From Actinomyces sp. (GTDB lineage Bacteria > Actinomycetota > Acidimicrobiia > Acidimicrobiales > Aldehydirespiratoraceae), in NCBI GenBank assembly GCA_003697065.1, contig RFFY01000191.1, forward strand, positions 1-41,281: 41,281 nucleotides of DNA, given 5' to 3'. This document shows positions 9,683-39,882 of this stretch, in pieces. Position 1 is the first letter of the stretch. Each line of letters begins with the position of its first letter. Position numbers and translations under genes: made by a program. The notes under the pieces are model-generated. The model had not been told where the DNA came from and ran no database searches. It saw only the letters and a list, made by a program, of their open reading frames with translations.

Positions 9683-9706
9683 AGGCAATCGAATCTTGCT
9701 GGGTCG

Positions 9707-12495: not shown

Positions 12496-12498
12496 GGC

Positions 12499-17659: not shown

Positions 17660-17742
17660 CGGGGCTCACCTCCACGGGATCAGGGATGGGGTCAACCCCG
17701 TAAGCCCCCCGGCGGCCCGAAACTCTCCACAACCGACGCGAA

Positions 17743-17759
17743 GAACCCCAGCGGGGTTC
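17743..17759. promoter_or_regulatory. Perfect palindrome GAACCCC-AGC-GGGGTTC in the divergent promoter region
   Basis: The 7-bp arms and 3-nt spacer sit 14 nt upstream of the hydrolase ATG. The palindrome lies between the divergent transfer operon and the hydrolase unit. Confidence 0.3.
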
Positions 17760-17772
17760 GGCCTACCCGACC

Positions 17773-18909: not shown

Positions 18910-18936
18910 CCGCAACACCTACCGTTCATCGCCGCC

Positions 18937-19338
18937 ATGGCCCGCTTCCACGCCGTCTACTACCGGGCACGCGACGGAACCGAACCGGTCCGCGAGTTCC
19001 TCGACGCCCTCGACGACACGACCGCCGCCGTGCTCGCCCACCAGATCGACCGGCTCAACCTGCTCAGCGACCAGATGCCCCACCTGCCGTTTCCCCACAG
19101 CTCCCAGGTCGACGGCGAGCTACGGGAACTGCGCTGCCACCACGGCCGCAGCCACTACCGCATCCTCTACCGCCGCTCCGACCGGCTCCTGATCCTGCTC
19201 CACATCTTCGCCAAACGCACCGGCAAGATCCCCGCCGCCGAGATCGCCGTCGCCCAACAACGCTGGGACGACTTCAAAGACCGCATGAACACCCAGCCTC
19301 GCACCCCACCCCGGGCCGCCGGCCACGACGCCCCCTGA
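18937..19338 (+). CDS. RelE/ParE-superfamily toxin, HigB/Gp49 (DUF891)-like
   Basis: ELRELRCHHGRSHYRILYRRSDRLLILLHIFAKRTGKIPAAEIAVAQQRWDDF is the typical Gp49-like pattern. Confidence 0.8.
   Translation: MARFHAVYYRARDGTEPVREFLDALDDTTAAVLAHQIDRLNLLSDQMPHLPFPHSSQVDGELRELRCHHGRSHYRILYRRSDRLLILLHIFAKRTGKIPAAEIAVAQQRWDDFKDRMNTQPRTPPRAAGHDAP
19311..19338 (+). repeat. Direct repeat copy 1 (last 28 nt of the toxin gene, including the TGA)
   Basis: CCGGGCCGCCGGCCACGACGCCCCCTGA is identical to 19809-19837 except for one extra C in copy 2. Confidence 0.95.
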
Positions 19339-19357
19339 TCGCAAGGGTGCCGGTGTC

Positions 19358-19708
19358 TCAGGCCCCTCCGCTTGCGGTGGCGACGGTCGCCACCATGTCC
19401 GCCGTCGTGCAGAAGGTGGCGTCGGGGAACCGCTTTCGGGTGGCGGCCACCTTGTCGGGGGAGCCACCGGCGAAGACGATCGGGATGTGCCGGCGGCTCT
19501 TGGCCTCCCACAGCCACTCTGCTATCGCTCGACCGTGGGACGGAAGCCGGTCCAAGGAGACCACCATGACGTCGGGCAGAGGATCGGGCCGTTCGGGGCG
19601 ACTCCCCTGGCGCCAATGCACCATCACCTGATGGCCGGCGTCCTCCAGCGCCCGGCGTCGCTCGGCCACTTCCTGCTCATGCCAGTGAATGAGCCAGACT
19701 CTCGCCAT
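19358..19708 (-). CDS. Small protein with a CheY-like receiver-fold pattern (degenerate); function unknown
   Basis: ATG 19708 is preceded by GAGGA. RVWLIHWHEQE...DVMVVSLDRLPSHG...IPIVFAGG mimics receiver beta1/beta3/beta4 spacing but lacks the N-terminal acidic pair. A TTG start at 19735 is also possible. Confidence 0.5.
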   Translation of the reverse strand: MARVWLIHWHEQEVAERRRALEDAGHQVMVHWRQGSRPERPDPLPDVMVVSLDRLPSHGRAIAEWLWEAKSRRHIPIVFAGGSPDKVAATRKRFPDATFCTTADMVATVATASGGA

Positions 19709-19808
19709 CGCTGGTCCTCGCTTCGACGCCGACAACCCCCTGGCTGGCCCTCAAACAACTCGCCCCCCACTGACTCGGCCCGAAGCATACCCGGCCGAAG
19801 CCCGCGGA

Positions 19809-19837
19809 CCGGGCCGCCCGGCCACGACGCCCCCTGA
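19809..19837 (+). repeat. Direct repeat copy 2 (orphan copy of the toxin 3' end)
   Basis: CCGGGCCGCCCGGCCACGACGCCCCCTGA lies 8 nt upstream of the palindrome, SD and HTH gene. Confidence 0.95.
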
Positions 19838-19845
19838 CACCACCA

Positions 19846-19863
19846 GTTAGCAGAACTGCTAAC
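19846..19863. promoter_or_regulatory. Perfect palindrome GTTAGCAG-AA-CTGCTAAC, candidate operator of the downstream HTH protein
   Basis: The 8-bp arms and 2-nt spacer are AT-richer than the surroundings. The palindrome sits 25 nt upstream of ATG 19888, just before the GAGGAGG SD. Confidence 0.5.
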
Positions 19864-19887
19864 CTGCCTGCGAGGAGGTGAAACACC

Positions 19888-20232
19888 ATGCCCCCATCGC
19901 CGACCAGCCCAGCCGGCAGCAGCGTGGCCGACCACATCAGCGACCGGCGAGCCCGCAGCGCCACCTACCGCGACACCCAGGACCGGCTGCGGCCCTTCGA
20001 GGAGATCGCCCGCATGGTCATCCTGCGCCGCGCCGAACTCGGGCTGACCCAACAGGAGCTCGCCGAGCGGATGGGCACCACCAAATCGGTGATCTCCCGC
20101 ATCGAAAGCGGCCAGCACCGCACCAGCACCGAAACCCTCCGGCGGCTCGCCGAAGCCCTCGACGGTCACGCGGTGGTCGGTTTCGACTTCAACCCCGATC
20201 ACAGATCCAAGCCCGAGGTTGTGCGCCTCTGA
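19888..20232 (+). CDS. XRE-family HTH protein, HigA-like antitoxin/repressor
   Basis: A GAGGAGG SD lies 9 nt upstream. LRRAELGLTQQELAERMGTTKSVISRIESGQHRTSTETLRRLAEAL is a classic XRE HTH. Confidence 0.85.
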   Translation: MPPSPTSPAGSSVADHISDRRARSATYRDTQDRLRPFEEIARMVILRRAELGLTQQELAERMGTTKSVISRIESGQHRTSTETLRRLAEALDGHAVVGFDFNPDHRSKPEVVRL

Positions 20233-20260
20233 CGCGGCTCGCACGCAGGATCGCCGCGGG

Positions 20261-21550
20261 ATGAACTGGCCGAACTACGAGGTGGCCGTGGGTGACGAGC
20301 TCGCCCTCTATGCCGGTCCGGCCAGGGTGAACGGCCGGCCTGTCACCGCCAGAGTGTGGTTCCCGCTGGCCTCAACCGACCTGAGGTTGCGCTGGGAGGC
20401 GACTGGGGGAGCCGATCTCGACTTGCACATCACCGACCAGGGCGGCGTCACCCAGCAGGCAGCGCTGGAGATCGACCACCCGCACATCGGGTCGTTCAGG
20501 GTTGATGCCACAGTGAACGAGGCGACGACGTCGATCGCGGGGTCTGCTTCGACGACGACTGGTTTCGGGACGGTCGACTCTGAGGTCCTCGGGGACCGGG
20601 CCGGCTCGGCCCAGCTGGTCAGCTGCGGGTGGTTGAACCTGCCCTCGCTGGCAGCCACGCCAAGCGGATCGTCTGAGTATCCGACGGTGCTGTCGGCCTG
20701 CGGATGGAACCTGGCGCTAAGGCCGATCGAGCCATTCACCGAGCGGGTCCGGGAGTTCCGCCGGCGGGGCCATCCCGTTTATGTGTCGCACCACGGCGAG
20801 TTGACGCGAGCCGATGGACATGCCTTCTCTGCCGAGGACGCCTTGGAGACGTTGCATGCATTCCAGTTGGCGTTGTCGTTCGTGCTGGGTCGCTTCGTCG
20901 CACCGTTGGCCCCAGCCGGAGAGCGGCACGGTGAGGTCGCATGGGTGCTCGCTCCTGCGTGGTTCTGCGATGAGGGTGTGGCCAACGATGGGATCATCTG
21001 GCCACTCGACCCCGAGGATCTCACCGGTGCCGTGGCCCGAATAGTCGCCGGGCTCCTTGACGGCGCTGACGCCTCACATCATCTGCGCCACGTTCTCATG
21101 CATGCGGTCGGCTGCCACCGGGTCGGCTTCGCCGAGCAGCGTCTCCTGACCGCCCAGGCAGGCCTGGAGTTCTTCCACAACTGGCAGGGCGGAGCAGGCA
21201 TAGGCGGGGCGGCGACGAGGATCAGCGGACTCCTCCAAGCCGCTGGCATCTCCACCGAGCTGCCCCCGGATTTCGATGCGCTCACCCAACTCTGTAGCGA
21301 TCCGGACATCGAACGACGACCGTCGCAGACCGGGCCCGATGCGGTGGTCTGGGTCCGCAATGAGGTGACCCACCCTAAGGATCCGCGGCGGCTGTATGAC
21401 ATTGACCGGCTCGTCTATGAGGCGTCGGCTCTGGCCCGTGAATACCTCGAACTCCTGATCCTCCACCGGCTGGACTATCGGGGCTACTGGCGGAAGCTCT
21501 ACCGGCCCGGGGCTTGGGCCTTCGAGCGCGAACGAGTCCCTTGGGCCTGA
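20261..21550 (+). CDS. Protein of unknown family with a C-terminal HEPN-type RNxxxH motif
   Basis: ATG 20261 lies 29 nt after the HTH stop. The C-terminal helical region contains AVVWVRNEVTHPKD followed by LVYEASALAREYLELLILHRL. I could not assign the N-terminal ~300 aa. Confidence 0.65.
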   Translation: MNWPNYEVAVGDELALYAGPARVNGRPVTARVWFPLASTDLRLRWEATGGADLDLHITDQGGVTQQAALEIDHPHIGSFRVDATVNEATTSIAGSASTTTGFGTVDSEVLGDRAGSAQLVSCGWLNLPSLAATPSGSSEYPTVLSACGWNLALRPIEPFTERVREFRRRGHPVYVSHHGELTRADGHAFSAEDALETLHAFQLALSFVLGRFVAPLAPAGERHGEVAWVLAPAWFCDEGVANDGIIWPLDPEDLTGAVARIVAGLLDGADASHHLRHVLMHAVGCHRVGFAEQRLLTAQAGLEFFHNWQGGAGIGGAATRISGLLQAAGISTELPPDFDALTQLCSDPDIERRPSQTGPDAVVWVRNEVTHPKDPRRLYDIDRLVYEASALAREYLELLILHRLDYRGYWRKLYRPGAWAFERERVPWA

Positions 21551-21596: not shown

Positions 21597-23156
21597 CTAC
21601 CGGCGTTGGAGGTCGAAGCGGAGTTGTTCGATGGTGTCGTCGGGGTCGCCGAGTTGGGCTTGTTGGAGGGCGGCGGCGTGTTCGCGGTAGACGGCTTCGG
21701 CACCGGCACGGTCGTCGTTGGCCAGGTGGGCGCGCATGAGAGCCTCGACCACGGTGCTGTTGAGCGGGACCGCTTGGGCGAGGCGCCGGAGAACGCCGAT
21801 GGCCTCGGTGGGCTGGTCGAGTTCGAGGTACAGCTCGGCGCACGCCTGCGCGATGGTGGCGATGCGGTACTCCCAGGTGGTGCTGTGGTGTTCGAAGTCG
21901 ACCCAACCAAACGAGGCACGAGCCGCGTTGGGGTAGGAGAAGGGCTTGCCGGTGACCAGATCGAGCGCCGCCCGGTAGTGGGCGACAGCACCGGCTGGCT
22001 CGAGGTCCGCGGCGGCTTGGACGTGCCAATCGAACAGCTCCAGATCGGTGCGCACACCCGGGCCGACGTCGTAGGTGCCGCTTCGGTTGGCCGGGAAGTG
22101 GTGGGAGCCGAGCGCGTCGCGGCATTCGGTCATGACGTCGCGCAGGCGTTTTCGATGTGAGGTGCCGTCAGAGCCGAACCAGCAAGCCTCCTCGAGGCGC
22201 TCGGTGGTCACCGACCGGTGCATGGCCAGGTAGGCGGCGACGGCGGTGGCCTTGGGCTTGAGCGGTTTCCCGCCTTCGACGCAGATGTCGCCGAGCAGCC
22301 GCACGAGCACCTCGTAGTCGGGGGGTTCGGCTGGGTGTGCAGCCGGATTGGAACCGCCTGGTGTGGCGGGCTCGGACCCGTTGGAGGACCCGGAATGTTC
22401 GGCCACGAGGAGGTCGATGAGGGTCTGTTCTTCGGGGCTTGCGGGGGTCACGAGCAGGCGGCACATATCGGCGAGCTCGTCGCCGTTGAGCTCCTGGGGT
22501 GGGCAGGCGATGTCGGCCGGCTCGAAGGTGAGGGTGTCGGGTTCGCAGCGGACGGTGGCACACGCCCCATCGAACGCTCCGACCACAACGACGGCAACCG
22601 TCGAGGGCAGGCTGGTGCGCAACGTGTCGTGGAGCCCGGACGGGGGTGGCTGGTCGGCGACCACGGCGAGCGGCACGAGCGCGTCGTGGTCGGGGTCGTG
22701 GGCCCGGCCGATGAACGAGTTTGGCCAGCCGTTGTCGGATAGTGCCTGGTGGGACTGGCCGGCCCAGGCGGCCACGTCGTCGGTGATGTCCTCCCAGGTG
22801 TTGACGACGGTGAGGTGTTCGAGGACGCTGACGTCCGCGTCTCCGACGAGGTCCCCGACAACGATGACCCGCAGTGTTTCGGCGAGGGGGCTGAGGGCCA
22901 GTTCGGTAAGGATGGACCGGGCAACGTCGGTGGCCACGGACTCGTCACCCGTAAGCGAGATCAACCCGTCGGTCTCGAGATCGAGGTAGAGCTGCGCGTC
23001 GTCTTCGGGTTGGCCGATGGTGACCAGCAGCGGTGCGGCGCATCGGGGTCCTTCGATGGCCTCAGGCTCTGGTGGGTCCAGGAGGGTCCAGATTGCGCCG
23101 TCGTCGGTGCTGTCCCATCCGGGTGGCGGGTCGGGGTCGGGCGGTTCGATCAGCAC
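21597..23156 (-). CDS. Regulator with a winged-helix (OmpR/SARP-type) plus BTAD domain in its C-terminal half
   Basis: YEVLVRLLGDICVEG...KPKATAVAAYLAMHRSVTTERLEEACW is the wHTH region. DLELFDWHVQAA...YRAALDLVTGKPF...WV..E and a TPR-like tail form the BTAD region. The N-terminal ~270 aa are unassigned. Confidence 0.7.
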   Translation of the reverse strand: MLIEPPDPDPPPGWDSTDDGAIWTLLDPPEPEAIEGPRCAAPLLVTIGQPEDDAQLYLDLETDGLISLTGDESVATDVARSILTELALSPLAETLRVIVVGDLVGDADVSVLEHLTVVNTWEDITDDVAAWAGQSHQALSDNGWPNSFIGRAHDPDHDALVPLAVVADQPPPSGLHDTLRTSLPSTVAVVVVGAFDGACATVRCEPDTLTFEPADIACPPQELNGDELADMCRLLVTPASPEEQTLIDLLVAEHSGSSNGSEPATPGGSNPAAHPAEPPDYEVLVRLLGDICVEGGKPLKPKATAVAAYLAMHRSVTTERLEEACWFGSDGTSHRKRLRDVMTECRDALGSHHFPANRSGTYDVGPGVRTDLELFDWHVQAAADLEPAGAVAHYRAALDLVTGKPFSYPNAARASFGWVDFEHHSTTWEYRIATIAQACAELYLELDQPTEAIGVLRRLAQAVPLNSTVVEALMRAHLANDDRAGAEAVYREHAAALQQAQLGDPDDTIEQLRFDLQRR

Positions 23157-24676
23157 TTCAAGGGTGTCGTCGCTGTGTCGGACGAGTCGAGGCCGACTGG
23201 CTGAGGATCGTGCGACGAGGGAGGCGGCAAGCCAGCCGAGGACGCTCTGCAGGTCTTCGATGCGGTCCTCGTCAGCCTGGGCGACGACCGCCTGATGGAG
23301 GGCCTGGTGGTCGGCCGGGGTGGGGTTTGTGATCTGTCCGGGGTGGTCGTTGGCGAAGCGGCGACGGCGTCGGTGCAGGAGCCGCTTGAGGCCGACGCCA
23401 ACGCGATGCTGGATAGTCCACCCAGGGCAACGACCGCCGGCGCGGACGCTGGCCTGTCATCGCTGCGCGGGTGCGGGGCCTGCGGGTCTGGCGGCTGCTC
23501 TGATGCCGGTTCGGTTGGCGGGGTGGGTTCGCTGTCGTCTGTCGTCGCCTCTCCGGTCTCGGGCAGCGGTGCAAAGGTGGAAGTTGGCGTGTCGGGTGCG
23601 GCCGTTTCCACCGGGGAGCGGTCAGGTGGAGGTGCCGTTCGATCATCCACGGGTGATGGCGGGGGGACGGCAGCTGGTTCAAACCCGGTGGGCGGAAGGG
23701 TGAGGATCTGGCCTGGCAGGATGAGGTCAGGGTTGCCCGGCTCCACGTAACGGCCTCGGTTCTGTTCGATCAGCTGCTGCCAGTAGGGGAGGATCTCGGT
23801 ATCTGTTGGTGACCGGCCCAGATCTGTGGCGAGGCGGTGCTCGGCGATGGTCCACAAGTTGTCGCCCGGCTCGACTGCGATCGTCTCCGACACGACTGGC
23901 GGCGAGGGTACGGTCGGGTCGACGGACCCGGACGACCTGTGGTCGGCGGTGGTGGGGCCGACCGTGGCGTCGGGGGGTAGTGCGAGAAGCCAGCCGGGGC
24001 GAAGGGTGTCGTCGTTGGGAGCGACGACGGCGCCGTCGGGCTGTACCCGCCCGACGTTGAGGTCGAGGATCTCCCGCCAGCGCAGGCCGTCACCGAGGGT
24101 GCGCTCGGCGATCGCCCAGTAGCTGTCGTGGCGCTGCACGGTGACGGTGGGCAGCGCTGATGCCGGGGGCGCTTGAGGGCCGGTGCGAGTGCCGGTCGAC
24201 GAGTTGGTATCGGGAGCCGTGCTCGGGACGGGTGGCGGTGCCGTGGTGGGGGCGACCGTGACGACCGGAGGTGTGAGCACCAGGGATGGGGTGGCGGCGT
24301 GTGCCCGGGCGGGTTGGAACGCGGAGGCGATCATGAGGATCCCGCCGATGAGGCGTGCGGCGGTGGCCTGGAACCCAGGGAGGACGGGTAGCCGGGTGGT
24401 GGGGCGGCCCCGGGCGGCAGCGATGATCTCGACGACGACCGCCAGGGTGAGCTGGGCCCAGGCGAGCCATGCGATGACGGCCAGGGTGTTGACGATGACC
24501 TCGTCGGCGATCCCAGAGCGGGCCCCATCAGCGAGGGCGTCGATGGAGGGGATGTTGGTCGGCAGTGGCCAACCGGCTCCGACGATCAGCACGGCGGGCA
24601 CCCCGGCGACCAGTCCCACGGTGAGCGAGAGTGACAGCAGGGCGCGGCTGATGCGGGGGAGGCGATGGTGGGTCAT
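23150..24676 (-). CDS. Membrane protein with two LysM-like peptidoglycan-binding repeats
   Basis: Three N-terminal TM segments are present. The LysM-like repeats are VTVQRHDSYWAIAERTLGDGLRWREILDLN and IAVEPGDNLWTIAEHRL...ILPGQILTLP. The C-terminus is P/T-rich. Confidence 0.75.
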   Translation of the reverse strand: MTHHRLPRISRALLSLSLTVGLVAGVPAVLIVGAGWPLPTNIPSIDALADGARSGIADEVIVNTLAVIAWLAWAQLTLAVVVEIIAAARGRPTTRLPVLPGFQATAARLIGGILMIASAFQPARAHAATPSLVLTPPVVTVAPTTAPPPVPSTAPDTNSSTGTRTGPQAPPASALPTVTVQRHDSYWAIAERTLGDGLRWREILDLNVGRVQPDGAVVAPNDDTLRPGWLLALPPDATVGPTTADHRSSGSVDPTVPSPPVVSETIAVEPGDNLWTIAEHRLATDLGRSPTDTEILPYWQQLIEQNRGRYVEPGNPDLILPGQILTLPPTGFEPAAVPPPSPVDDRTAPPPDRSPVETAAPDTPTSTFAPLPETGEATTDDSEPTPPTEPASEQPPDPQAPHPRSDDRPASAPAVVALGGLSSIALASASSGSCTDAVAASPTTTPDRSQTPPRPTTRPSIRRSSPRLTRTASKTCRASSAGLPPPSSHDPQPVGLDSSDTATTPLKC

Positions 24677-25065
24677 GGTTGGGCCTCGTCGACGGCGGTG
24701 GCGGTCTGGCGAACGGTGATGACCCGGTCCGGTCCGGGAAGGATGAGCATCGGTTGGGTGCGGGTGGCGGTGACGGTGATCGACGCGCGAGACACAACGG
24801 CGCTTCCGGCGAGTCCGACACGCTCGAGGTAGTCGAGCGCGGCCGACCGGGCGGCGTCGGGGTCCAGGCGCGGCTCACCGGTGGCGCGGAGCTGAGCCAG
24901 GTCGATCTGTTGGGCGCCGGCGCGGGCGGCTCGTTCGGCGGCATGGCGAGTGGCGTTGTGGGCGGTGATGACTCGACCTCCGTCGTAGGCCATGCCAGCG
25001 ACCAGGACGAGGGCAGTCGCGACGACGGCGACGAACGCGGTGATCGCGCCCCGGTCGTCGCTCAC
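24673..25065 (-). CDS. TadG-like pilus assembly protein / pseudopilin
   Basis: GTG 25065 overlaps the upstream stop (GTGA). The N-terminus SDDRGAITAFVAVVATALVLVAGMAYDGG matches the TadE/G-like N-terminal motif. Confidence 0.7.
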   Translation of the reverse strand: MSDDRGAITAFVAVVATALVLVAGMAYDGGRVITAHNATRHAAERAARAGAQQIDLAQLRATGEPRLDPDAARSAALDYLERVGLAGSAVVSRASITVTATRTQPMLILPGPDRVITVRQTATAVDEAQP

Positions 25066-25490
25066 GGGGCGCCGCTCCGGTAGATGTCGATTACCTCCAC
25101 CGCGGTGGCCCTGAACGTCCGGCGGCCGGGCACCCCCAGGAGGGTGACATCGGCCATCGAGGCTTCGCAGTTGACGGTCACGCTGACGGTGCCCCCGGGG
25201 ACGAACCGGGAGGTGTCCACCTCGACGGTGAGATCGGTGCATCGCAAGCCGGCGGCGCTGAGATTGTCGGCGGCGGCCTGACGGGCGTCCGCGGTGGCGT
25301 CGGCGGGCCGCTGGCGCAGCGACGCGGCGCGGGCAGCTGCCGTCGCTGCGCGCTCGACGTTGCCGTCGGCTTCGGCGATCCTGCCGGCGTACACGACCAG
25401 CAGCATCAGGAACAGCAGGGCCGGGGCGATCACGGCCACTTCGACCGCGACTGATCCCCGGTCGGCGCGGACGACGGGACGCCCGGTCAT
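25062..25490 (-). CDS. tadE: TadE-family pseudopilin
   Basis: ATG 25490 overlaps the upstream stop (ATGA). ADRGSVAVEVAVIAPALLFLMLLVVYAG is a TadE N-terminal signature. Confidence 0.75.
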   Translation of the reverse strand: MTGRPVVRADRGSVAVEVAVIAPALLFLMLLVVYAGRIAEADGNVERAATAAARAASLRQRPADATADARQAAADNLSAAGLRCTDLTVEVDTSRFVPGGTVSVTVNCEASMADVTLLGVPGRRTFRATAVEVIDIYRSGAP

Positions 25491-25873
25491 CGTTCCGGTT
25501 CCGGGATGAATCGCTCGACCGGGGCGGCACTGCGGGCGGTCACCGACCAGTTGAAGCCGGGAACAAGGCGAGGCGCGTCGCCGTGCACCTCGGCGGTGAC
25601 CAGGGTGGGCTTCCAGGTCACCGACACGGTGACGTTGGCGAGGTTGCCGGCCTGCGCGAGGTAGCTCCGCGCGGCGTCCTCGCCGAGCCGGGCGTCTCCG
25701 TCGGGCACCCGCGCCGTCGCTACGGCTTCGGCGGCGGCGGCGTTGGCGACCTGCTTGGCGTGCCACCACAGTCCGTACTGGACGATGAGCATGATCCAGA
25801 ACAGGACGACAGGGAAGAGAATGGCGACCTGGATTGTCGTCACACCGGTCTCGTCGTGTCGCCGCTGGCCCAT
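25487..25873 (-). CDS. tadE: TadE-family pseudopilin
   Basis: The gene starts at ATG 25873. DETGVTTIQVAILFPVVLFWIMLIVQYG is a TadE-like N-terminus. Confidence 0.7.
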   Translation of the reverse strand: MGQRRHDETGVTTIQVAILFPVVLFWIMLIVQYGLWWHAKQVANAAAAEAVATARVPDGDARLGEDAARSYLAQAGNLANVTVSVTWKPTLVTAEVHGDAPRLVPGFNWSVTARSAAPVERFIPEPER

Positions 25874-25877
25874 CGGT

Positions 25878-26087
25878 TCATCCGGCGGGCTGCTCGGGTG
25901 TTGGGATGCTGTCGGCGTTGTTCTTGGCTGCCGTGTAGATGATGCCCAGCACAACGATCGCCGCCCCGACGAGCAGGAAGGTGATCACCGCGACCTCGGT
26001 GGTGGTGAGGCCCCGTTCGTCCCGGGAATTGATGCCGAGCCGGGCGCAGCAGTAGGCGATCAGGAAACGGGGGTCGATGATGTGCAT
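25878..26087 (-). CDS. flp: Flp-family prepilin
   Basis: AAGGAGAAG lies 7 nt before the ATG. RDERG/LTTTEVAVITFLLVGAAIVVLGII is a G/xxxxE(V/Y) Flp processing motif followed by a hydrophobic helix. The protein is 69 aa. Confidence 0.8.
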   Translation of the reverse strand: MHIIDPRFLIAYCCARLGINSRDERGLTTTEVAVITFLLVGAAIVVLGIIYTAAKNNADSIPTPEQPAG

Positions 26088-26117
26088 GACTTCTCCTTTG
26101 TGGTGTGGGTCTGGTCT

Positions 26118-27029
26118 TCAGGGCTGGGGCCCGCTGACCGTGGTGATCTGGATGACGGCCGGGTAGGCGATAAAGACGAGGAAACCGAACAGCAGAACCG
26201 CCACGGGAACGGTCATGCGCTCGGTGGCCGCTTCGGCGGCGGCCTCGGTCTCTGCGATCTGATGGCCGCGCAGCGTGTCTGCCTTGGCGGCGAGCGAGGC
26301 GCGGATGCGGGCGCCGTGCGAGCCCGCGAGGGAGACGCTGGCAGCCAGCACGGCCAGCTCGTGGATGCCCAAGCGGTCGTCCAGCTGGGCGAAGGTGTCC
26401 CACGGGGACTGGCCGGTCAGCCGGGCTCGGCGCAGCTCGGCGCGAATGGTCCGATACCCCCAACCGTCACCGGCCTCGGCGGCGGCGTGCAGGGCGGTCT
26501 CGATTCCTGCCCCACCGGCCAAGAGAACGTTGACCAGGTCCAGGTAGGACGACAACGTGTGACGAAAGGCCCGGCGACGTTTGTCGGCTTCGTCGCGGAG
26601 CACCAGGTCGGGTAGGACGAATCCGCCCCCCGCGGTAGCCAGCGAGAGCGCCGCCACCCCGCCGAGGGGCAGCGCAAGCCCGGCCGAGACCATTCCGGCC
26701 GCGGCCAGGTTCGGGATCAGCAGACCAGCGGATGCGCCAAGGAGCTTGTCGAAGGCGTGCCGTTCGGGAGTGCGACCGACGAGTTCGAGCTCTTGGCGGT
26801 AACGGTTGGGATCAGCGCCGAGAGCTTCGACGATACGGCGGACCATCGGCCCCGCCCGAGCGGTCAGTGATGCCCGAGCCGAACTGCTTGAGATCACCGG
26901 CACGCCGGGCCGGGCGAGCCGCCCCAAGACCTCGTCGAGATCCGGAGGACGGGGGGCGACGGCGCGCCAGCAGAGCAGCAGGCCTGTAGCCGCGCCCGCC
27001 CCTAGCACGGCCATCACGACGAGGGTCAT
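26118..27029 (-). CDS. tadC: TadC-like inner-membrane platform protein (T2SS F family)
   Basis: The protein has TM helices at both ends and a cytoplasmic helical domain. Its position after TadB and the ATGA overlap at 27026-27029 fit this call. Confidence 0.75.
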   Translation of the reverse strand: MTLVVMAVLGAGAATGLLLCWRAVAPRPPDLDEVLGRLARPGVPVISSSSARASLTARAGPMVRRIVEALGADPNRYRQELELVGRTPERHAFDKLLGASAGLLIPNLAAAGMVSAGLALPLGGVAALSLATAGGGFVLPDLVLRDEADKRRRAFRHTLSSYLDLVNVLLAGGAGIETALHAAAEAGDGWGYRTIRAELRRARLTGQSPWDTFAQLDDRLGIHELAVLAASVSLAGSHGARIRASLAAKADTLRGHQIAETEAAAEAATERMTVPVAVLLFGFLVFIAYPAVIQITTVSGPQP

Positions 27030-27916
27030 CGGTCCTGCTCCACGGTGGAGGGTCCGCCGGCGCGGGCGGTGAACCGCTCGGGCTGTTCGATCTCAGCCAT
27101 TCGTGTGAGCAGCCAGCCGCCGGCAGTGAAAATTCCGATGACCACAGCCAGGACAAGCTGCCCGCCCGGGCTGTCGTAGACCTCGAGGTAGCTGCGATTG
27201 ACTACGGCCAGGAACAGAACCGCTGCTACGACGACTCCGACAATGACCTTGGTTGCTGTCCTCACTCGGGTGCGGCCCACCTCCACCCGGATCCGCATCC
27301 GGGCCTCGCCCCGTGTGGCGTCCGCCAGCCGGCACAGCAGGCTGGACAGGTCGGCGGCTTCCATGCGGGAGGCGATCACCAGCGCGGCCACCACCAGGTC
27401 CCCGGAGGGGTGATCGAGGTCCTCGCCGAAGGCGACCAGCGCGTCAGACAGCCGGTGGTGATCGAGGCGGCGGACCAGGGTATGGACCTCGGCTGCGATG
27501 GGCTTCGGGGCGACCGGGGCGGTCGCGGCGACGGCCTCCTCGAGGCCGGAGGCTGCGGCGATCGAGTCGCGGATCATCTCAGTCCAGGATGCGATCGCCT
27601 CAGTGCGGTCGATGACACGTTGGCGTGCCGCCTTGCCACCCAGGAGCCGGGGTAGCACGACGGTGGCCGCCGCCGCGCCGACGCCGCCGACCACCCAGCC
27701 GGTCACCGCCACGGCGAGCAGGGCGGCCGCCAGTGCGGCGGCCGCCCGGGGCAGCAGGGAGCTGCGGGTTACGCGTTCGACGGCTCGCGACGGCTGGTCG
27801 AAGAGCTGCCGGCCGGTCAGCCCCGCCACCGCGAGCAGCAGCCCCAAGCCGGAGGTAGCCGCGAAACCGGCGAAGACCGCGGTACTCACCTCCACCACCC
27901 CTGGGCGGTAGCGCAC
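27026..27916 (-). CDS. tadB: TadB-like inner-membrane platform protein (T2SS F family)
   Basis: The architecture matches TadC. The start is uncertain: in-frame GTGs lie at 27916, 27898, 27895 and 27889, and 27889 would give a GTGA overlap with the cpaF stop. Confidence 0.7.
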
Positions 27917-29238
27917 AGCGCGCTATCGAAGCCGTGCGCCTCGATTGCGGCGGCGAACTCGGGCGTGGGCGGAGCAGCCGGCACACCGGCGCCGGTGTGA
28001 TCCGGACGCCACAGTTCGTTGGAGACCACGTGGCCGCCCTCGACCGTCCCGGTCACTTGGCGGACACTCGTAATGCGACGGATCCCCCGAACCCAACCGA
28101 GGTGCACGATCAGATCGACGGCGTTGGCAACCAGGAGGTTTGTCACCTCGGGTACGAGTCGCTCGGGCGTCATGGCCGCGTACATGGCAAGCCGGCCGAA
28201 GACCCCCTTGGAGGAGTCGGCGTGGATCGAGCACATCGATCCGTCGTTGCCCTGGCTCATGGCCAACAGCATCGGGAGGACTTCCGCGCCGCGGACCTCG
28301 CCGACGATGACCCGCTGGGGGTCCATGCGTAACGCCGAGCGGACAAGTGCCGCGAGTGTGAACGCGCCGACCCCTTCGGTGTTGGCCTCCCGGGCCTCGA
28401 GGGTTTCGTGGTCAGGATGCAGGTGCTCGAACCGCTCCAGGCCGATCTCGAGGGAGTCCTCGATGGTGATGAGTCGCTCGTCCGGGGGGATCTCGTTGAT
28501 CAGGCAGCGCAGCGTGGTGGTCTTGCCGGTACCGGTGCCGCCGGCGACGATGATGTTGGCCCGGGCCTGTACCGCCGCGGACATGAAGCTGGCCAGGAGT
28601 TCGTCGCACACGCCGAGGTCGACGAGCTGGTACAGCCGGTGGATGTCGAAGTCGTGTCGGCGGATGGTGACCGTCGGCCGACCCGAGACGGCCATCAAGG
28701 CGTGGAGCCGGTCACCGTTGGGAAGCTGCAGGTTGAGTTCGGGGTGGGCGTGGTCCCAGCGGCGTTCGCTCCGGCCAAGTCGGCGGGCCGCGGTGGCGAT
28801 CAGCTCGATGAGCTCGTCGTCGGAGTCGGCGACCGCCGGTCCCCGAACCTTGGTGCCGTCCCGCAAGTTGAGCCAGACCCGGTGTGCCCCGGAGATGTGG
28901 ATGTCCCGGATCTGCGGATCGTCAAGGAGGGGCTGGAGACGGGCCAGGCCGTGGAGCCGGTCCAGGACTGCCGCGGCGACGCGGGCTTCTGCTTGTTCGT
29001 CGAGGGGCTCACGGCCGTCGGTGTAGGCCCGGGCGGCGAGGCGTCGGAGCTCGTCGGCGATCAGTTTTCGGGCCAGCGCACGCTCGTCGGCTGGGGTCAG
29101 ACGGCCGCGCCCCGCTTGTTCGTGGGCAACGTGAGCCGAGGTGAGCGCCTCACCGACGCTGCGGTGAAGGCTGTTGATCAGTTCGGGGTCGAGGCCGTCC
29201 CCGTTCCAGGTCCCGGGGGGCGCCGTCGCCTGGCTCAT
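27886..29238 (-). CDS. cpaF: CpaF/TadA secretion ATPase
   Basis: Walker A is [35 protein letters not shown] and the His box MCSIHA are also present. Confidence 0.9.
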
Positions 29239-29939
29239 GATCCGAGCTCCTCGAGCGTGCGGTCACCATGGACCGCGCGGGCAAGGGCGAGAGCTCCGCG
29301 TGCCAGTCGCGACCGCCGCAGGCGACCGGCCGGAGCGCCGCCATGACACAGCGCTTCAGCGACGGGCCGATCCTCCGGCAGCGACCCGATGATCGGGACC
29401 TCCATGGTCCGTTCGATGTCGGCGGCTCGGTACGGGCCGTCTCCGGCGAGCACGATTCCCAGCACCCCACGGACGGTTGGGCGCAGGACCGGCAGCAGGT
29501 GGGTCAGTGCGACCAACTGTTCGGCGACGGGTCGAACAACCAGGCCGAGCACATCAGACGCCGTGACTATCGGGCGCGGCATGCGCACCCGGCCGGCGTC
29601 GACGACGGCAACACCGTCGGCAGCAAGCAACCTTCGGGTGATCCGCTCGCCGGCGGTCCGCCACAGTGCCGCGCTCGCTGCCGGTGCGTCCGGGCCCACC
29701 ATCACGGCAACCCCGCCGGCCTCCTGGGCGTGCGGCCGCCAATCCTCGCCGGTCTCGGCAGCCGCGGCCGCGAACGTGATGAGACCCGGCTCGCGGCCCA
29801 GGCCGTAGCGGACCGCGAGCACCCCGCCGTCGAGGTCGCCTTCCACGACGACCGCTCCCTCTATCGCCGCGCCAAGCAGCACCGCGGCGGTCGTGACCCC
29901 GGGAGAGCCACGCACCGAGGCCAAGGTCAGGATCCTCAT
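29235..29939 (-). CDS. TadZ/CpaE-like ParA/MinD-fold protein with a degenerate P-loop
   Basis: MRILTLASVRGSPGVTTAAVLLG stands in place of KGGxGKTT. The gene lies between the SAF-domain gene and cpaF, with ATGA overlaps at both ends. Confidence 0.65.
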   Translation of the reverse strand: MRILTLASVRGSPGVTTAAVLLGAAIEGAVVVEGDLDGGVLAVRYGLGREPGLITFAAAAAETGEDWRPHAQEAGGVAVMVGPDAPAASAALWRTAGERITRRLLAADGVAVVDAGRVRMPRPIVTASDVLGLVVRPVAEQLVALTHLLPVLRPTVRGVLGIVLAGDGPYRAADIERTMEVPIIGSLPEDRPVAEALCHGGAPAGRLRRSRLARGALALARAVHGDRTLEELGS

Positions 29940-30601
29940 GGCGCCACCAGCACCAACCGCAGGCCTGTCACACCAGCGGAAGCGGCGACCACCTCGGCGT
30001 CAGCCCGGGCGGCCAGGATCGACACCAACAGCCGGTCGCCGGTCAACTCCTCGACCGCGAACACCGTGGCATCACGAGCAAGCACGCGGGGAGCCGCGTC
30101 GAGGTCAGCCGCCTCGGCGGCACGAACCACGTTGACCCTGTCACCGGGAGCGAGCCCGCGAGCCGGATAGGCGCCGGGGTCGAGGGCGAGACCGACCACC
30201 CCGTCGCTGGCACGGACCGTGACCGGTTCGGCTACCAACGACGGGGTCATCAGCGTGCCTTCGGCCAAGTCCACCAAGGCCACCCGGCCCACCAGCTGGC
30301 TGGCCTCGGAGGGGTCGAGGCGGACGAGCGCGCCGTCGTCGGACACGTACACCGTCCGCAGGTCCCCGGGCTCAACGACCTGACCGCGCTGGAGGTGCGA
30401 TGCCGCGGCCAAGGCGGGCACCTTCTGGACAGCGCTGAGATGCCACAGGACGGCGCCCAACGCGAACAGGACCGTGACCAGCAACCCGACCATCAGCTCG
30501 GGGACACGTACCCGCCGCGCGGCAGGCCGCACCTCGAGCCCAGCGCGCCGCCGGTGCCCGTTGGAGGTCGTCGCTGGCGAGGTTGAGGTCGACGTCGCCA
30601 T
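29936..30601 (-). CDS. cpaB: CpaB/RcpC-like Flp pilus assembly protein (SAF domain)
   Basis: An N-terminal TM anchor is followed by HLQRGQVVEPGDLRTV (SAF-like) and GDRVNVV. Confidence 0.7.
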   Translation of the reverse strand: MATSTSTSPATTSNGHRRRAGLEVRPAARRVRVPELMVGLLVTVLFALGAVLWHLSAVQKVPALAAASHLQRGQVVEPGDLRTVYVSDDGALVRLDPSEASQLVGRVALVDLAEGTLMTPSLVAEPVTVRASDGVVGLALDPGAYPARGLAPGDRVNVVRAAEAADLDAAPRVLARDATVFAVEELTGDRLLVSILAARADAEVVAASAGVTGLRLVLVAP

Positions 30602-30607
30602 GGGATC

Positions 30608-31438
30608 TCAAGCTCCTCTCGTCCCGATCGCCTGAATCTCCCCGACCTCCACGTCCCGGAACGAGGTGCGCGAAATCGGCGGGAGGCTGCCGCCCGCACC
30701 CGGTGCGTTGGAGGTCCACGAGATCTCCAGGGTGACCGTCGGCTGCAGCCGGAAGGTTCCCTGCGGGGTTGTCGCCGACGACCGCCGGTAGGTGTGAGTG
30801 CAGTCGCTGGCACCCTCGGGCATGCCCGGACGCCACGCCGTTCCCGGACCACGACAATCCACACGGTCGCCGTCGCCGGTGTCCCATGTAGTTGCCACTG
30901 GGGTGGCCCGCACGGTCGACCACACTCGACCCGCTCGGGCCGTTGCCTCATAGGGTCGCCACCAGCCCTGCTCCACCCAGAGCCAGGTGGGCACACCCAC
31001 GTAGAGCCGCCCATTCTCCGACGGGCTGGTGTGGAAGGTCGGGCCGTCGATGCCCACCGACGCCAACGCGTCGACCGCCAGCTGCGACGGGTCCACCGCC
31101 TCGCCCTCGGGCACCAGGGCGAAGCCGTTGATGGGGACGATCCCCTGATCGGGGCACCAGTACTCCAGCCAGCGACCGGTCTCGGAGTGCAGCCTGGTGA
31201 AGTCGACGTCGTAGATCGCGAACTCGAAATCGTCACCGATCACCACGCGCCAACGGCACTGATCCTCGCCCGTGCCGGCCGCGGGGACCTCGCGGACCTC
31301 CACGTCTTTGGCGACCGCGGTCGGGTCGCCGTCGTTGTCCACGAACGCGTCCGCACCGTCGTCAGCCCACACCGACGGTGCGGCGCCCGAGATCACAACG
31401 GTGACGACCAGCGCGGCGATCAGCGGGCGCCGGCGCAT
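30608..31438 (-). CDS. Secreted protein of unknown function in the Tad operon
   Basis: ATG 31438 begins the signal peptide MRRRPLIAALVVTVVISGAAPSVWA/DD. No family was recognised. Confidence 0.6.
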   Translation of the reverse strand: MRRRPLIAALVVTVVISGAAPSVWADDGADAFVDNDGDPTAVAKDVEVREVPAAGTGEDQCRWRVVIGDDFEFAIYDVDFTRLHSETGRWLEYWCPDQGIVPINGFALVPEGEAVDPSQLAVDALASVGIDGPTFHTSPSENGRLYVGVPTWLWVEQGWWRPYEATARAGRVWSTVRATPVATTWDTGDGDRVDCRGPGTAWRPGMPEGASDCTHTYRRSSATTPQGTFRLQPTVTLEISWTSNAPGAGGSLPPISRTSFRDVEVGEIQAIGTRGA

Positions 31439-32061
31439 CCCGCTACCCCTTCCCATTCCTGGACGACGCTCGCCCGCTGCAGCTTCCACAGGCCGTCGAC
31501 CTTGACCATCACGGCCAGGACGTTGCGGGTCACGACCGAGTCGTCGACCACCTCGCCGGTGGCCACCCGGTAGACGACGCCGTCGTTGACGAAGCAGTCC
31601 TGCAGTTCGGCGCGGTCACCGCTTCGGGACACAACGGTCACGATGTGCTCGGTCCGGGAAGGCTCAGCAGCCCGTAGCGCCAACCCTTCCTCGCGCCGCC
31701 GGCGGGTCTCGGCGATGACCGTCTGGAGCTGTTCGCCGGTGGCGAACTCTGCCAGCGCGGGGTCGTCCGGATCAGGCGTGCCGCTGTTGGCGGCAAGACG
31801 AGCGTCCCAGAACCCGAGGTACCGGGCGACGATCTCTTCCTCTGCCGGGACCGCTGTGGTGCTGGTCGCCGGCGAGGTCGTCTCGGGCCCTGTGCCCGAC
31901 GTAGCACCGGACGTTGACGGGACCGAGGAGGTGGTGGTGGGCGTCGGCGTCGCCGAGTCGCTTCCCGCGCAGGATGCCGCCAGCAGGCCGAGCCCAGCCA
32001 CGACTACCGCGAGACATAGTCCCCGTCGTGTTGCGGGTCCGGAAGCGTCGCACCTGGCCAC
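31420..32061 (-). CDS. Lipoprotein of unknown function, first gene of the Tad operon
   Basis: GTG 32061 lies 7 nt after GAGGAGG. The lipobox LLAASC is followed by a T/S/P-rich linker and a globular domain of about 130 aa. Confidence 0.65.
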   Translation of the reverse strand: MARCDASGPATRRGLCLAVVVAGLGLLAASCAGSDSATPTPTTTSSVPSTSGATSGTGPETTSPATSTTAVPAEEEIVARYLGFWDARLAANSGTPDPDDPALAEFATGEQLQTVIAETRRRREEGLALRAAEPSRTEHIVTVVSRSGDRAELQDCFVNDGVVYRVATGEVVDDSVVTRNVLAVMVKVDGLWKLQRASVVQEWEGVAGCAGAR

Positions 32062-32303
32062 GATCTCGCCTCCTCGTCCGGGACGGCCCTTTCCGCTGAC
32101 GCCAGCGTGGCTGCTGGGCGGGTCGACCGCTGTGTCACCGCCGAGGCGGCCGCGCGGGCCTGAGGAGAGGTGGTCCGTCCCGTGACGGTCAGACGGACGA
32201 GACCGGACACCTACGTGTCGGTGCCAGTCGCAACGATACCGAAGAATGGCGCCTTCTGCTCGGGAGCGACATTCGTTAGACACCGGTCGAACCGGTCGGA
32301 GGT

Positions 32304-32984
32304 TCAGCTTGCCCACGCGACCTGGCGGAGGCGGGCCTCTGCTCGCCACCGGCGATGCCAGAGCACCTTGACCGGCAGGTGCTGTTCGGCGGCCAGATCG
32401 GACATGGACTCGCCCCAGGCACGGCTGCGAACGACGGTGTCAAGCGCAGCTTCGGACACACCGTGTCGGCGGCCGGCTTCGAGCAGGTCCGACAGGTAGG
32501 CGCGGGTGACGATCAGGTTCTCCGGGGACGGCACCTGGGGATCACCGGCGACGGTGAGGTCGACCGTGTCTGGGTGGTGGTGCTGACGGTTGTAGCGCTT
32601 GCGGACATCGAGCAGGACGTTCCCGGCGATCGAGCCGGGACGCTGCGCCGGGTAGGTGCGGATGCGTTCCCACGCGAGGCTGATCAGCTCGTCGGCGGCG
32701 TTGGCATCACGGCCGATGCTGTTCGCGAGGTTGCAGAGCCCACCCAGGATCGCCTGGAGCAGTGTGCGGGCCGCCATGGTGTCGACTGGCGCGAGCTCGG
32801 CGAGCACGCGGCGAACCTGGGGGCCGGTCGCTGGGTCGTGGCCCAGATCGAGGAGATCGTTGAGGTCACGGGCCGGCCCCAGCAGCGGACGGGTGGCCTT
32901 CCACCGCATGACCGCTCGCCGGGCAGCGGGCGAGCCGGCGAGATGAGCCCACTCGTGGTTCAAGACGCTGAGAATGTGTGCCAT
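32304..32984 (-). CDS. Sigma-70-like / HTH regulator
   Basis: ATG 32984 lies 7 nt after AGGAGGG. ELISLAWERIRTYP is region-2-like. ESMSDLAAEQHLPVKVLWHRRWRAEARLR is a region-4-like HTH. Confidence 0.5.
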   Translation of the reverse strand: MAHILSVLNHEWAHLAGSPAARRAVMRWKATRPLLGPARDLNDLLDLGHDPATGPQVRRVLAELAPVDTMAARTLLQAILGGLCNLANSIGRDANAADELISLAWERIRTYPAQRPGSIAGNVLLDVRKRYNRQHHHPDTVDLTVAGDPQVPSPENLIVTRAYLSDLLEAGRRHGVSEAALDTVVRSRAWGESMSDLAAEQHLPVKVLWHRRWRAEARLRQVAWAS

Positions 32985-33196: not shown

Positions 33197-33721
33197 ATGG
33201 AACGAGATGACCTGTTGTGGTTCACTCCGGTCGACCATCCGGACCCGCGGGTCCAGCGTGTGGGCTTCGATCTGGACGACCCCTACGTGGAGCAGTGCTG
33301 GTCTGCGGTGATCGGGCCGAGCTCGGTGCTGTTGCTGCGTCGACTACCGGTGCTGTGGGTTGCCGAGGTCCCCGCCCGCATCGCCGCCAGCGAGCTGTCC
33401 CAGTCGATCGGATTGGGTGCCGGCGTCGGTGAGCGGAGCCGGCTCGCCAACACGCTGGACCGGGTGGTCCGGTTCGGTCTGGCCCGACCTGCCACCGACA
33501 GCACCGGGCTCGACGTGTACCGGCAGGTGCCTCCCCTGAGCCCCCGCCAGGTCCAGCGCAGCTCAACCTGGACCCGAACCACCCACGAGCGGCTCTTCGC
33601 CGCCCACCTCCAGGACCTGGCCGGGCGGGGCGACCTTGCAGGCACGGTGGCGTCCCTGCGCGCCCGGATGGACCGCCTCGAGAACACCCGGGCCCGGTCC
33701 CTGGGAACCCTCGGCCGATGA
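33197..33721 (+). CDS. Hypothetical DNA-binding protein upstream of the relaxase (possible relaxosome accessory factor)
   Basis: IAASELSQSIGLG...SRLANTLDRVVRFGLA looks like a winged helix. The position directly upstream of the relaxase supports the accessory-factor idea, which rests on position only. Confidence 0.45.
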   Translation: MERDDLLWFTPVDHPDPRVQRVGFDLDDPYVEQCWSAVIGPSSVLLLRRLPVLWVAEVPARIAASELSQSIGLGAGVGERSRLANTLDRVVRFGLARPATDSTGLDVYRQVPPLSPRQVQRSSTWTRTTHERLFAAHLQDLAGRGDLAGTVASLRARMDRLENTRARSLGTLGR

Positions 33722-39462: not shown

Positions 39463-39713
39463 CAGCGTCCCCTTCGGATCCGACCGAACGGGGACGCCAG
39501 CCCCACACCACTGGTGGCGGTCCTGGGACGTCCTACCGGGACCGCCGAGGGCGACACCGATGGTAGCGGTCCCCAACCCGAAGATCGACCGACCCCCACC
39601 GCGACGGTCCTGGCCCCCGGGCCAGCGGCGAGCTCGACGGTCCCGGCCGGATGGCCGGCGGGTGTCGTCGCGTCCCTTCCCGTGACAGCCCATGGCGGCC
39701 GGTCCCGGCCCGC

Positions 39714-39805: not shown

Positions 39806-39882
<77 letters not shown>

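Follow-up and report, generated by a model that had tools for sequence, protein, structure and literature searches.

In the textbook account, conjugation in Gram-positive bacteria proceeds via surface adhesins and not via pili. Tad systems of monoderm bacteria are known from chromosomal loci such as tad2003 of Bifidobacterium breve, the tad genes of Micrococcus luteus and Rv3654c–Rv3660c of M. tuberculosis, where a core set of TadZ, TadA/CpaF, TadB, TadC, Flp and TadE/F works without a secretin and has its known roles in gut colonization or transformation, not in conjugation. The subject of this work is a Tad/Flp gene cassette that lies inside an ICE (integrative and conjugative element) on a 41,281-nt stretch of contig RFFY01000191.1 from an acidimicrobial genome (assembly GCA_003697065.1; this whole stretch is hereafter referred to as the window). 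The cassette occupies positions 21597–32061 of the minus strand, between the type IV secretion system (T4SS) genes and the relaxase gene of the element. It shares the core set with the chromosomal monoderm systems and differs from them in its location in a conjugative element, in its additional lipoprotein, PKD-like secreted, SAF and LysM–transmembrane (TM)–SARP members, and in a Flp candidate that lacks the Tyr of the G↓XXXXEY motif (arrows mark predicted cleavage sites).

The view that Gram-positive conjugation systems use adhesins rather than pili, repeated in the first-pass annotation of this DNA, has a published partial exception in the linear plasmids of Cutibacterium acnes, whose tad locus adjoins VirB4/TcpC/FtsK-like genes (PMC5696575). 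A TadE-type pilin has been detected on the surface of C. acnes cells, and the authors call the link to conjugation unclear (PMC5696575). Plasmids of the p15.1.R1/pIMPLE-HL096PA1 type resemble the locus described here in carrying tadZ/A/B/C along with genes for several TadE-like pilins and for a Flp-like one whose signal is of the G↓SSTVET type. They differ from it in being linear plasmids rather than tRNA-integrated ICEs, in belonging to Actinomycetes rather than Acidimicrobiia, and in having a FtsK/TraB-like translocase where the ICE in the window has a TrwC relaxase and VirD4. This likeness is drawn from the published description rather than from sequence alignment, and PMC5696575 holds no family-wide comparison.

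In terms of function, the closest analogy is offered by the type IVb thin pilus of the IncI plasmids R64 and TP114 and by the PAPI-1 pilus, which are encoded by mobile elements separately from the T4SS and act in mating-pair formation or stabilization. That the type IVb pili of R64 and TP114 serve mating is described in PMC9045228 and, for R64, as related in PMC4027160. These systems belong to diderm hosts, are of type IVb, and possess PilV adhesins with a shufflon as well as a secretin; their function has been demonstrated, whereas that of the locus in the window is a prediction. Common ground is confined to the ATPase, platform and pilin superfamilies, and the Pfam content of the window is of the Tad type (TadE, PF13400). 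With respect to transfer genes, the actinobacterial ICEs of the T4SS type (Ghinet et al. 2011, PMC3218068; Choufa et al. 2022, PMC9513070) share with our element a TrwC/MOBF relaxase, a VirD4-like coupling protein, a VirB4-like ATPase and a tyrosine integrase at a tRNA gene. Tad or pilus genes are not mentioned for those ICEs, and the family described here is from Acidimicrobiia. Systematic T4SS surveys contain no composition data for actinobacterial systems (PMC4027160) and make no mention of Tad genes, and a 2026 Rhodococcus paper counts genes for pilus assembly and peptidoglycan binding as plasmid 'transfer proteins' with no analysis of them. Our full-text literature searches for a Tad–T4SS association in Actinobacteria returned only the C. 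acnes case and passing annotation remarks.

The Tad cassette in its ICE family and on actinobacterial plasmids

The element in the window is a T4SS-type ICE of the MOBF/VirB4 type that appears to be integrated at a tRNA-Met gene. Homologues of its relaxase and VirB4 place it among the Acidimicrobiia (Iamia, Microthrixaceae, Ilumatobacteraceae and many metagenome-assembled genomes). Transfer genes had initially been assigned to both sides of the Tad block, with VirB4, the type IV coupling protein (T4CP) and a hydrolase on one side and the relaxase on the other, and the Pfam matches and coordinates agree with this arrangement. An alignment of relaxases provided 79 loci from species-representative genomes, and in 30 of them the sequence reaches 8 kb or more upstream of the relaxase. 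In 23 of these 30 loci, CpaF and the remaining genes of the block were found in identical order and orientation, and in one further locus (L057) the first three Tad genes are displaced by an insertion of about 6 kb. Moreover, across 14 elements the pairwise distances of CpaF, TadB, TadC, SAF, TadZ and Sec (the PKD-like secreted protein) track the relaxase distances (Mantel r 0.82–0.94, p 0.0002). The comparison that the first-pass annotation had called for thus found that related ICEs with the same relaxase or VirB4 usually carry the Tad block, in the same position and co-diverging with the relaxase.

The same arrangement is seen from the VirB4 side. Among VirB4-anchored metagenome loci, the TadG and LysM–BTAD genes lie just past the hydrolase gene in about 16 of the 31 with enough flank, a count that is a lower bound because the flank ends about 4–5 kb past the hydrolase. 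One very common relative, represented by 111 blocks in the collection, has a compact Tad–hydrolase–T4SS layout in which only 33 nt separate the end of the Tad operon from the hydrolase gene. Other genes of the window are not retained in this way: the DinB-like gene beside the relaxase recurs in 0 of the 79 loci, as do YopA and DUF3644. We also considered whether the block might be a separate island. This reading was rejected, as no integrase, tRNA gene, direct repeats or compositional break is found at the block edges, and the 33-nt junction in relatives joins it to the T4SS cluster. With no island boundaries of its own and with the block present in relatives, the locus does not correspond to the arrangement (absence from all related ICEs, within separate boundaries) that had been named as speaking against the association.

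Two further kinds of locus bear on the history of the slot. In L011 and L017 (relaxase 65% identity, CpaF 50%) and in L027 (CpaF 38%) the same slot is occupied by another Tad lineage, with relaxases at 53–65% identity, which amounts to a module swap. In the Iamia sp. SCSIO 61187 plasmid NZ_CP050949 (L087), whose relaxase and SCO6880 protein are 64% and 65% identical to those of the window, two IS3 transposases bracket the Tad site (25607–31098), and only a 485-residue BTAD remnant is found there. This pattern indicates that the plasmid lost its Tad block through IS3 elements. The plasmid is typed as non-mobilizable by MOB-suite and carries many metal-resistance genes. The block was ancestrally present in this family. 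Taken together, synteny and divergence argue that the Tad cassette is backbone of this ICE family, co-inherited over a long time, and not niche-specific cargo.

The cassette is also found beyond the Acidimicrobiia. We searched 72,556 plasmids for CpaF homologues, and the closest of these were all actinobacterial. Six plasmids, which represent four further actinobacterial orders, were inspected: those of Embleya, Kitasatospora and Streptomyces anulatus, together with Paenarthrobacter pTC1, Nocardioides pNOCA01 and Kineococcus pKRAD01. On all six the gene order is (lipoprotein)–Sec–SAF–TadZ-like–ATPase–two T2SSF–small open reading frame (ORF)–TadE–TadE–TadG–LysM/BTAD, and all six have conjugation-type genes as neighbours (VirB4-like ATPases, T4CP, NlpC/P60 and replication-relaxation proteins). 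Homology between the window and the plasmids is detectable at the sequence level for Sec, SAF and LysM–BTAD, and a 2.8-Mb Streptomyces replicon shows a similar cassette arrangement. The cassette is a recurrent partner of actinobacterial conjugation modules. A linkage statistic based on the SCO6880 marker was set aside as evidence, since its 22–29% identity to most plasmid homologues is too weak for every T4SS cluster to be recognized (the main Iamia plasmid alone reaches 65%). In Nocardioides pNOCA01 (L084), an insertion between tadB and tadC (17216–20476) carries genes for a tyrosine recombinase and an HTH regulator together with a hypothetical gene.

Genes of the cassette and their predicted products

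The gene map of the window, whose GC content is about 70%, is based on third-codon-position GC filtering combined with Pfam and NCBIfam matches; a second call was made with an independent caller on the source contig (Logan SRR7905024). All 13 ORFs that had been listed for the Tad block are present on the minus strand, with the family assignments below taken from Pfam/NCBIfam and profile searches, and the independent caller returned the same 13 products (213/276/221/234/450/287/303/69/128/142/130/508/519 residues). Domain content and gene order identify the operon as a tightly packed, putative monoderm-type Tad/Flp (type IVc) pilus cassette. Its earlier description as complete applies only in the sense of a set without tadV. 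Likewise, most junctions had been described as ATGA/GTGA overlaps; overlaps of 4 nt are present at 7 of the 12 junctions, and the one reported between the LysM and BTAD frames proved to be an artefact (see below).

The first gene of the operon (31420–32061) encodes a lipoprotein of 213 residues with a signal peptide, the lipobox LLAASC and a Thr/Ser/Pro-rich linker. It has a GGAGG ribosome-binding site (RBS) upstream and is conserved in 25 relaxase-anchored loci and on the Embleya plasmid; the protein has no family match in Pfam or NCBIfam. Between this gene and the conserved gene upstream lies a noncoding gap of 243 nt (32062–32303), which is likely the promoter region of the Tad operon. A sigma-70-type consensus was not found in the gap, and scans for promoters and terminators gave nothing over shuffled expectation, as expected in high-GC DNA. 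The second gene (30608–31438) encodes Sec, a secreted beta-rich protein of 276 residues with a PKD-like WDTGDG motif. Its PKD match is below threshold (E 0.037), and one family member is named 'PKD domain-containing'. The AlphaFold2 model of Sec has a pLDDT of 78, and a Foldseek comparison of the model with the PDB gave nothing significant (best E 5e-3, TM about 0.1–0.2, generic Ig-like folds). Sec is a marker specific to this cassette, and homologues of it occur on five of the six distant plasmids.

The next five genes encode the predicted membrane machine. The CpaB/RcpC-like SAF protein (29936–30601, 221 residues) has an N-terminal TM helix, matches PF08666 (E 7e-6, 26.9 bits vs a cut-off of 21) and gives a weak match to TIGR03177 pilus_cpaB. 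The TadZ-like protein of the MinD/ParA fold (29235–29939, 234 residues) was recognized through a family profile built from 11 orthologues (A3), which matches MinD 1hyq over its full length (E 2.8e-6) and ParA 3ea0 (E 1e-3), an assignment at superfamily level only. Its Walker A motif is degenerate and lacks the Lys (RGSPGVTT; RG[S/A]PGVTT in the family), and it has neither a Pfam match nor a receiver domain. The CpaF/TadA secretion ATPase (27886–29238, 450 residues; PF00437 T2SSE, E 4e-36, 124.9 bits vs a cut-off of 24.9) has a Walker A motif at residue 233 and is 72–87% identical in related ICEs. Of the two platform proteins, the TadC-like one (26118–27029, 303 residues) matches PF00482 T2SSF clearly (E 4e-10, 40.1 bits vs a cut-off of 25.2), and the TadB-like one (27026–27889, 287 residues) matches it below the gathering score (E 3e-4, 21.1 bits); the two have homologues in T2SSF pairs that are annotated on plasmids.

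Four small proteins follow, each with a predicted prepilin-type signal. The Flp-type prepilin candidate (25878–26087, 69 residues), whose gene follows a 30-nt gap and is equipped with a separate AAGGAG RBS, consists of a leader of 26 residues ending in DERG, followed by LTTTEVAVITFLLVGAAIVVLGII, and the predicted mature pilin has about 43 residues. The motif DERG↓LTTTEV, with Glu at +5 and Val rather than Tyr at +6, is followed by a hydrophobic helix and is conserved in about 18 loci. The protein has no Flp_Fap match, and its match to DUF4244 is below threshold (E 0.036). Two TadE-type pseudopilins, of 128 residues (25487–25873; PF07811, E 1e-10) and 142 residues (25062–25490; PF07811, E 5e-8), carry the signals ETG↓VTTIQ and DRG↓SVAVE, respectively, and the TadG-like minor pilin (24673–25065, 130 residues; PF13400, E 8e-7) carries DRG↓AITAF; all three have the class III signal. 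The signal (D/E)(E/R)G↓xxxx(E/Q/F) and the hydrophobic helix after it are thus shared by all four proteins and are kept across about 20 related loci, so that the cassette predicts four prepilin peptidase substrates.

Pfam searches of the main ORFs in the 41-kb window, tblastn queries with A24 peptidases from two plasmids and hmmsearch in all six frames found no A24 prepilin peptidase, which upholds the first-pass statement that TadV/CpaA is missing. An ORF of 795 codons (707–3094) that gave a weak tblastn match was ruled out as a peptidase, its product being a Zn-ribbon-rich protein. Among relatives, the cassette of L146, which has the same VirB4 family at 60% identity, ends with its own Peptidase_A24 gene (948–1499, E 1.9e-14). 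In L146 as well as in L086 (23738–24685) and L002 (29910–30680), tadV directly follows the LysM–BTAD gene, and the Kineococcus and Kitasatospora plasmids have an A24 peptidase gene at the end of the cassette. In the lineage of the window this position holds either nothing (the 33 nt) or cargo. In known monoderm Tad systems, tadV is often unlinked.

The operon's final gene (21597–24676) had been read as two, one for a LysM protein (23150–24676) and one for a wHTH–BTAD protein (21597–23156). Both domain calls hold, with LysM and BTAD each detected by Pfam (BTAD PF03704, E 1e-10), and the two ORFs are a single frameshifted gene. The corresponding plasmid proteins (1,068–1,137 residues) are colinear with the LysM ORF and then with the BTAD ORF in another frame, and their match to the BTAD half extends upstream past the BTAD start as called. 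In L049 and L027 one frame runs through both halves without a break, and in L089–L092 they form a single protein of 1,034 residues. Nucleotide alignment places a 1-nt deletion within 23396–23410 (AGCATCGCG-TTGG vs AGCATCGCGCTCG), in the TM helix that precedes KRLLHRRRRRF; the apparent GTGA-type overlap is therefore a product of one gene split by this deletion. In support of the winged helix-turn-helix (wHTH) call, a profile of the C-terminal 300 residues (A7) matches EmbR 2fez (E 8e-17, residues 13–248) and AfsR 8hvr (E 1.4e-13, residues 28–274), and both matches reach into the wHTH; Pfam Trans_reg_C gave no match in the regulator.

The full-length product of about 1,030 residues is laid out as N-terminal TM helices, two extracellular LysM-like regions, a further TM helix and a cytoplasmic wHTH+BTAD unit, and is predicted to be a membrane-anchored SARP-type regulator with extracellular LysM regions. 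Its cytoplasmic half has the same wHTH+BTAD unit as EmbR and AfsR (PDB 2fez, 8hvr). In contrast to these, the unit is placed behind TM helices and extracellular LysM regions, in a ToxR-like topology, and is accompanied by neither FHA nor NB-ARC.

Transfer genes, lesions and ends of the element

The MOBF (TrwC) relaxase-helicase gene (33861–37172, plus strand; PF08751, E 5e-60; PF13604 AAA_30, E 5e-52), whose start was set from homologues, is preceded on the same strand by a conserved gene of 174 codons (33197–33721; in 46 related loci) with no Pfam or NCBIfam family match. Inside that gene, a 27-nt inverted repeat (33239–33265/33446–33472) is 85% complementary, with arms 180 nt apart, and is possibly an oriT-related structure. 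The conserved gene g32304 (32304–32984, minus strand; 226 codons), present in 33 related loci, lies upstream of the Tad operon and points away from the relaxase operon. It has no Pfam, NCBIfam or PDB-profile match, and for this reason an initial reading of it as a sigma-like regulator was dropped. The DinB-like gene follows directly downstream of the relaxase gene, and a tyrosine integrase gene (38296–39693, minus strand) sits beside the 3′ end of the tRNA-Met gene (39806–39882), the two marking the right end of the ICE.

On the other side of the Tad block, the T4SS cluster (11422–17659, minus strand) comprises genes for a protein of 96 residues, a DUF8175-like protein of 240 residues, a VirB6/TrbL-like protein, a SCO6880-family protein, VirB4 and a Toprim primase. 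The primase gene spans 11422–12495 and the VirB4 gene 12499–13866, the latter belonging to a family of 2,919 homologues, some of which are named 'type IV secretory pathway VirB4 component'. The SCO6880-family gene follows at 13866–15365, and the genes for the VirB6/TrbL-like and two small membrane proteins end at 17659. The SCO6880-family protein weakly resembles the type VII secretion system (T7SS) component EccE (PF11203, E 0.005), and one of its plasmid homologues carries the annotation EccE; this likeness hints at a kinship of actinobacterial T4SS and T7SS membrane components. A cell-wall hydrolase with glucosaminidase and M23 peptidase domains is encoded at 17773–18909 on the plus strand. 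Between it and the end of the Tad operon, a trio of plus-strand cargo genes (18937–21550) encodes a Gp49/HigB-like toxin, an HTH_3 protein and a YopA_M/YopA_C protein of 443 residues. The trio is absent from relatives and may be a toxin–antitoxin or defence module.

Several lesions distinguish this copy of the ICE. The VirD4-type T4CP gene (6632–8536, minus strand; T4SS-DNA_transf and TraG-D_C domains) is interrupted after about 72 codons by an in-frame TAG at 8321–8323, where a sense codon (for Tyr, His or another residue) stands in 32 relatives; a change of TAC to TAG requires a single base. Despite the presence of both domains, the gene does not qualify as encoding an intact coupling protein. 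Between the Toprim primase gene and the T4CP operon, a DUF3644 gene and a DDE transposase gene (DDE_Tnp_1_4) occupy 8729–11200, where GC falls to 0.57 and relatives have only a gene of 193 codons. The methyltransferase/ResIII helicase encoded after the T4CP has 1,595 residues in relatives, and only its first 127 residues are found here (~5085–5465). Beyond ~5085, GC is 0.63, and the sequence contains the gene for the 795-residue protein mentioned above (707–3094), which is Cys-rich and Zn-ribbon-like, and that for the C-terminal end of another tyrosine integrase (1–375). The sequence here may belong to a second element, either inserted into the ICE's left part or standing in its place. No second att copy, sought as a repeat of the tRNA-Met 3′ end, was found in the window, and the left ICE end is probably either beyond the window or disrupted near 5085.

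With a nonsense codon in the T4CP gene and the other lesions, this copy of the ICE may no longer transfer, and the frameshift in the regulator gene together with that nonsense codon suggests that it is probably no longer fully functional. A more far-reaching explanation is that the ICE is decaying and that its Tad operon is no longer properly expressed or used, a reading that is compatible with any function of the cassette. The split LysM–SARP gene, the TAG where relatives have sense codons, the insertion sequence and DUF3644 gene in the T4SS region, the truncated methylase–helicase, and the lack of both tadV and a second att copy in the window all point in this direction. The remaining eleven Tad genes, on the other hand, are intact and retain their overlapping starts and stops. 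The single-base lesions could in addition be errors of short-read metagenome assembly, or be very recent, and a restart at TTG 8317 might preserve some T4CP activity. We consider such decay quite plausible, at somewhat less than an even chance.

Possible roles of the predicted filament

The predicted gene products outline how a filament might be made. A membrane machine would be formed by CpaF as ATPase, TadB and TadC as platform, the MinD-like TadZ with its degenerate motif, and CpaB with its SAF domain. An A24 peptidase, which in this copy the host would have to supply, would cut the 69-residue Flp and the minor pilins TadE1, TadE2 and TadG-like, in each case behind the conserved (D/E)(E/R)G, and the Tad machine would build a thin filament from them through the cell wall. 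In this scheme the lipoprotein and the PKD-like secreted protein would be accessories of the envelope or tip, and the LysM–TM–SARP protein would activate transcription from the membrane and could tie expression to a signal from the cell wall. By analogy with the IncI type IVb thin pilus, we propose that the filament would set up or steady the contact between donor and recipient for the neighbouring T4SS, rather than act as a conduit for DNA; we judge the chances of this proposal to be about even.

A number of observations weigh against a dedicated role in transfer and against the backbone status on which it draws. Six of the 30 relaxase-anchored loci have no Tad genes within the 10-kb flank, a range in which loss and displacement look the same. 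In the Tad-negative loci L022, L024 and L065, Pfam assigns the slot to a restriction–modification methylase–Vsr set, helicases, a serine recombinase, a patatin and similar genes. About half of the VirB4-anchored loci also have no Tad genes within their flank, and most members of a distant VirB4 clade, at about 43% identity, are Tad-negative. Four Streptomyces plasmids have >60 kb between the SCO6880-type marker and CpaF. On the chromosome of Nonomuraea gerenzanensis (NZ_LT559118, 1.86–1.90 Mb; L174), a cassette that includes a LysM/BTAD protein of 1,092 residues and a Sec-like protein lies beside housekeeping and T7SS/ESX genes (EccD+YukD, WXG100-like, EccB, EccC), and no T4SS was detected within 20 kb of it; the cassette is thus not exclusive to T4SS elements. 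The copy in the window is itself without tadV and has lesions in its regulator and T4CP genes. Furthermore, the Mantel signal in part reflects the shared ancestry of whole elements, and linkage and co-divergence would be expected equally of a stable cargo that benefits the host. Tad loci are, moreover, classically regarded as adhesion islands that move horizontally.

These points lend themselves to an explanation in which the cassette is a 'widespread colonization island' that helps its host to attach to surfaces or flocs, with any effect on transfer being indirect, through denser biofilms. Tad loci are described as horizontally spread determinants of adhesion and colonization (Tomich 2007, as cited in PMC5696575), and sludge metagenomes are the source of many relatives of the element, in floc-forming Microthrixaceae and other Acidimicrobiia; the Nonomuraea cassette away from any T4SS and the related elements with no block in the fetched flank would fit equally well. 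Arguing the other way, the block behaves as backbone, with a fixed position between T4SS and relaxase across 50–72% relaxase identity and with tight co-divergence, and it has been replaced like for like by another Tad lineage, whereas the true cargo next to it turns over completely. It also recurs with conjugation genes in hosts of very different habitats, and hosts that range over sludge, soil, marine sediment and skin speak against an adhesin for one niche. An adhesion cargo is therefore, in our estimation, a possible explanation and a less probable one than contact for mating. It is very unlikely that the cassette is a DNA-uptake pseudopilus, importing DNA or aiding the recipient side, as its proximity to DNA-processing genes and the need for tad genes in M. 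luteus transformation (Angelov 2015, as cited in PMC5696575) might suggest, given that no ComEA-, ComEC- or DprA-type genes are among the window ORFs scanned by Pfam, that an element already exporting DNA through its T4SS would gain little from uptake, and that the lipoprotein, PKD-like and LysM–SARP members are without counterpart in competence systems. We accordingly rank mating-pair contact first, adhesion cargo second and DNA uptake a distant third.

The proposal of a contact filament for mating can be extended in a more speculative way. T4SS-type conjugation in Actinomycetota might depend generally on an element-encoded Tad/Flp filament, with the cassette of 12–13 genes as an obligatory mating-pair-formation module, in some lineages with its own tadV; it would then be the monoderm counterpart of the conjugative pilus. 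We regard this extension as tentative and rather doubtful at present. The T7SS neighbourhood of the Nonomuraea cassette and the EccE-like SCO6880 protein possibly reflect a deeper tie to the envelope-spanning systems of actinobacteria.

The association is more general than could be seen from the sequence of the window alone, and it has a published precedent in the C. acnes plasmids. In these acidimicrobial ICEs, a large family that is abundant in the environment, the Tad cassette is co-inherited backbone, and the same cassette stands beside conjugation genes on plasmids of Streptomyces, Kitasatospora, Embleya, the Arthrobacter group, Nocardioides and Kineococcus. A remark on a single species, C. 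acnes, is thereby turned into a phylum-wide pattern and a testable hypothesis. Should the hypothesis hold, it would supply the contact apparatus that has been missing from actinobacterial single-stranded DNA conjugation, and a marker by which such elements can be found. Should it fail, the cassette would still be an unusually stable 'cargo', one that brings with it a new membrane-anchored LysM–SARP regulator.

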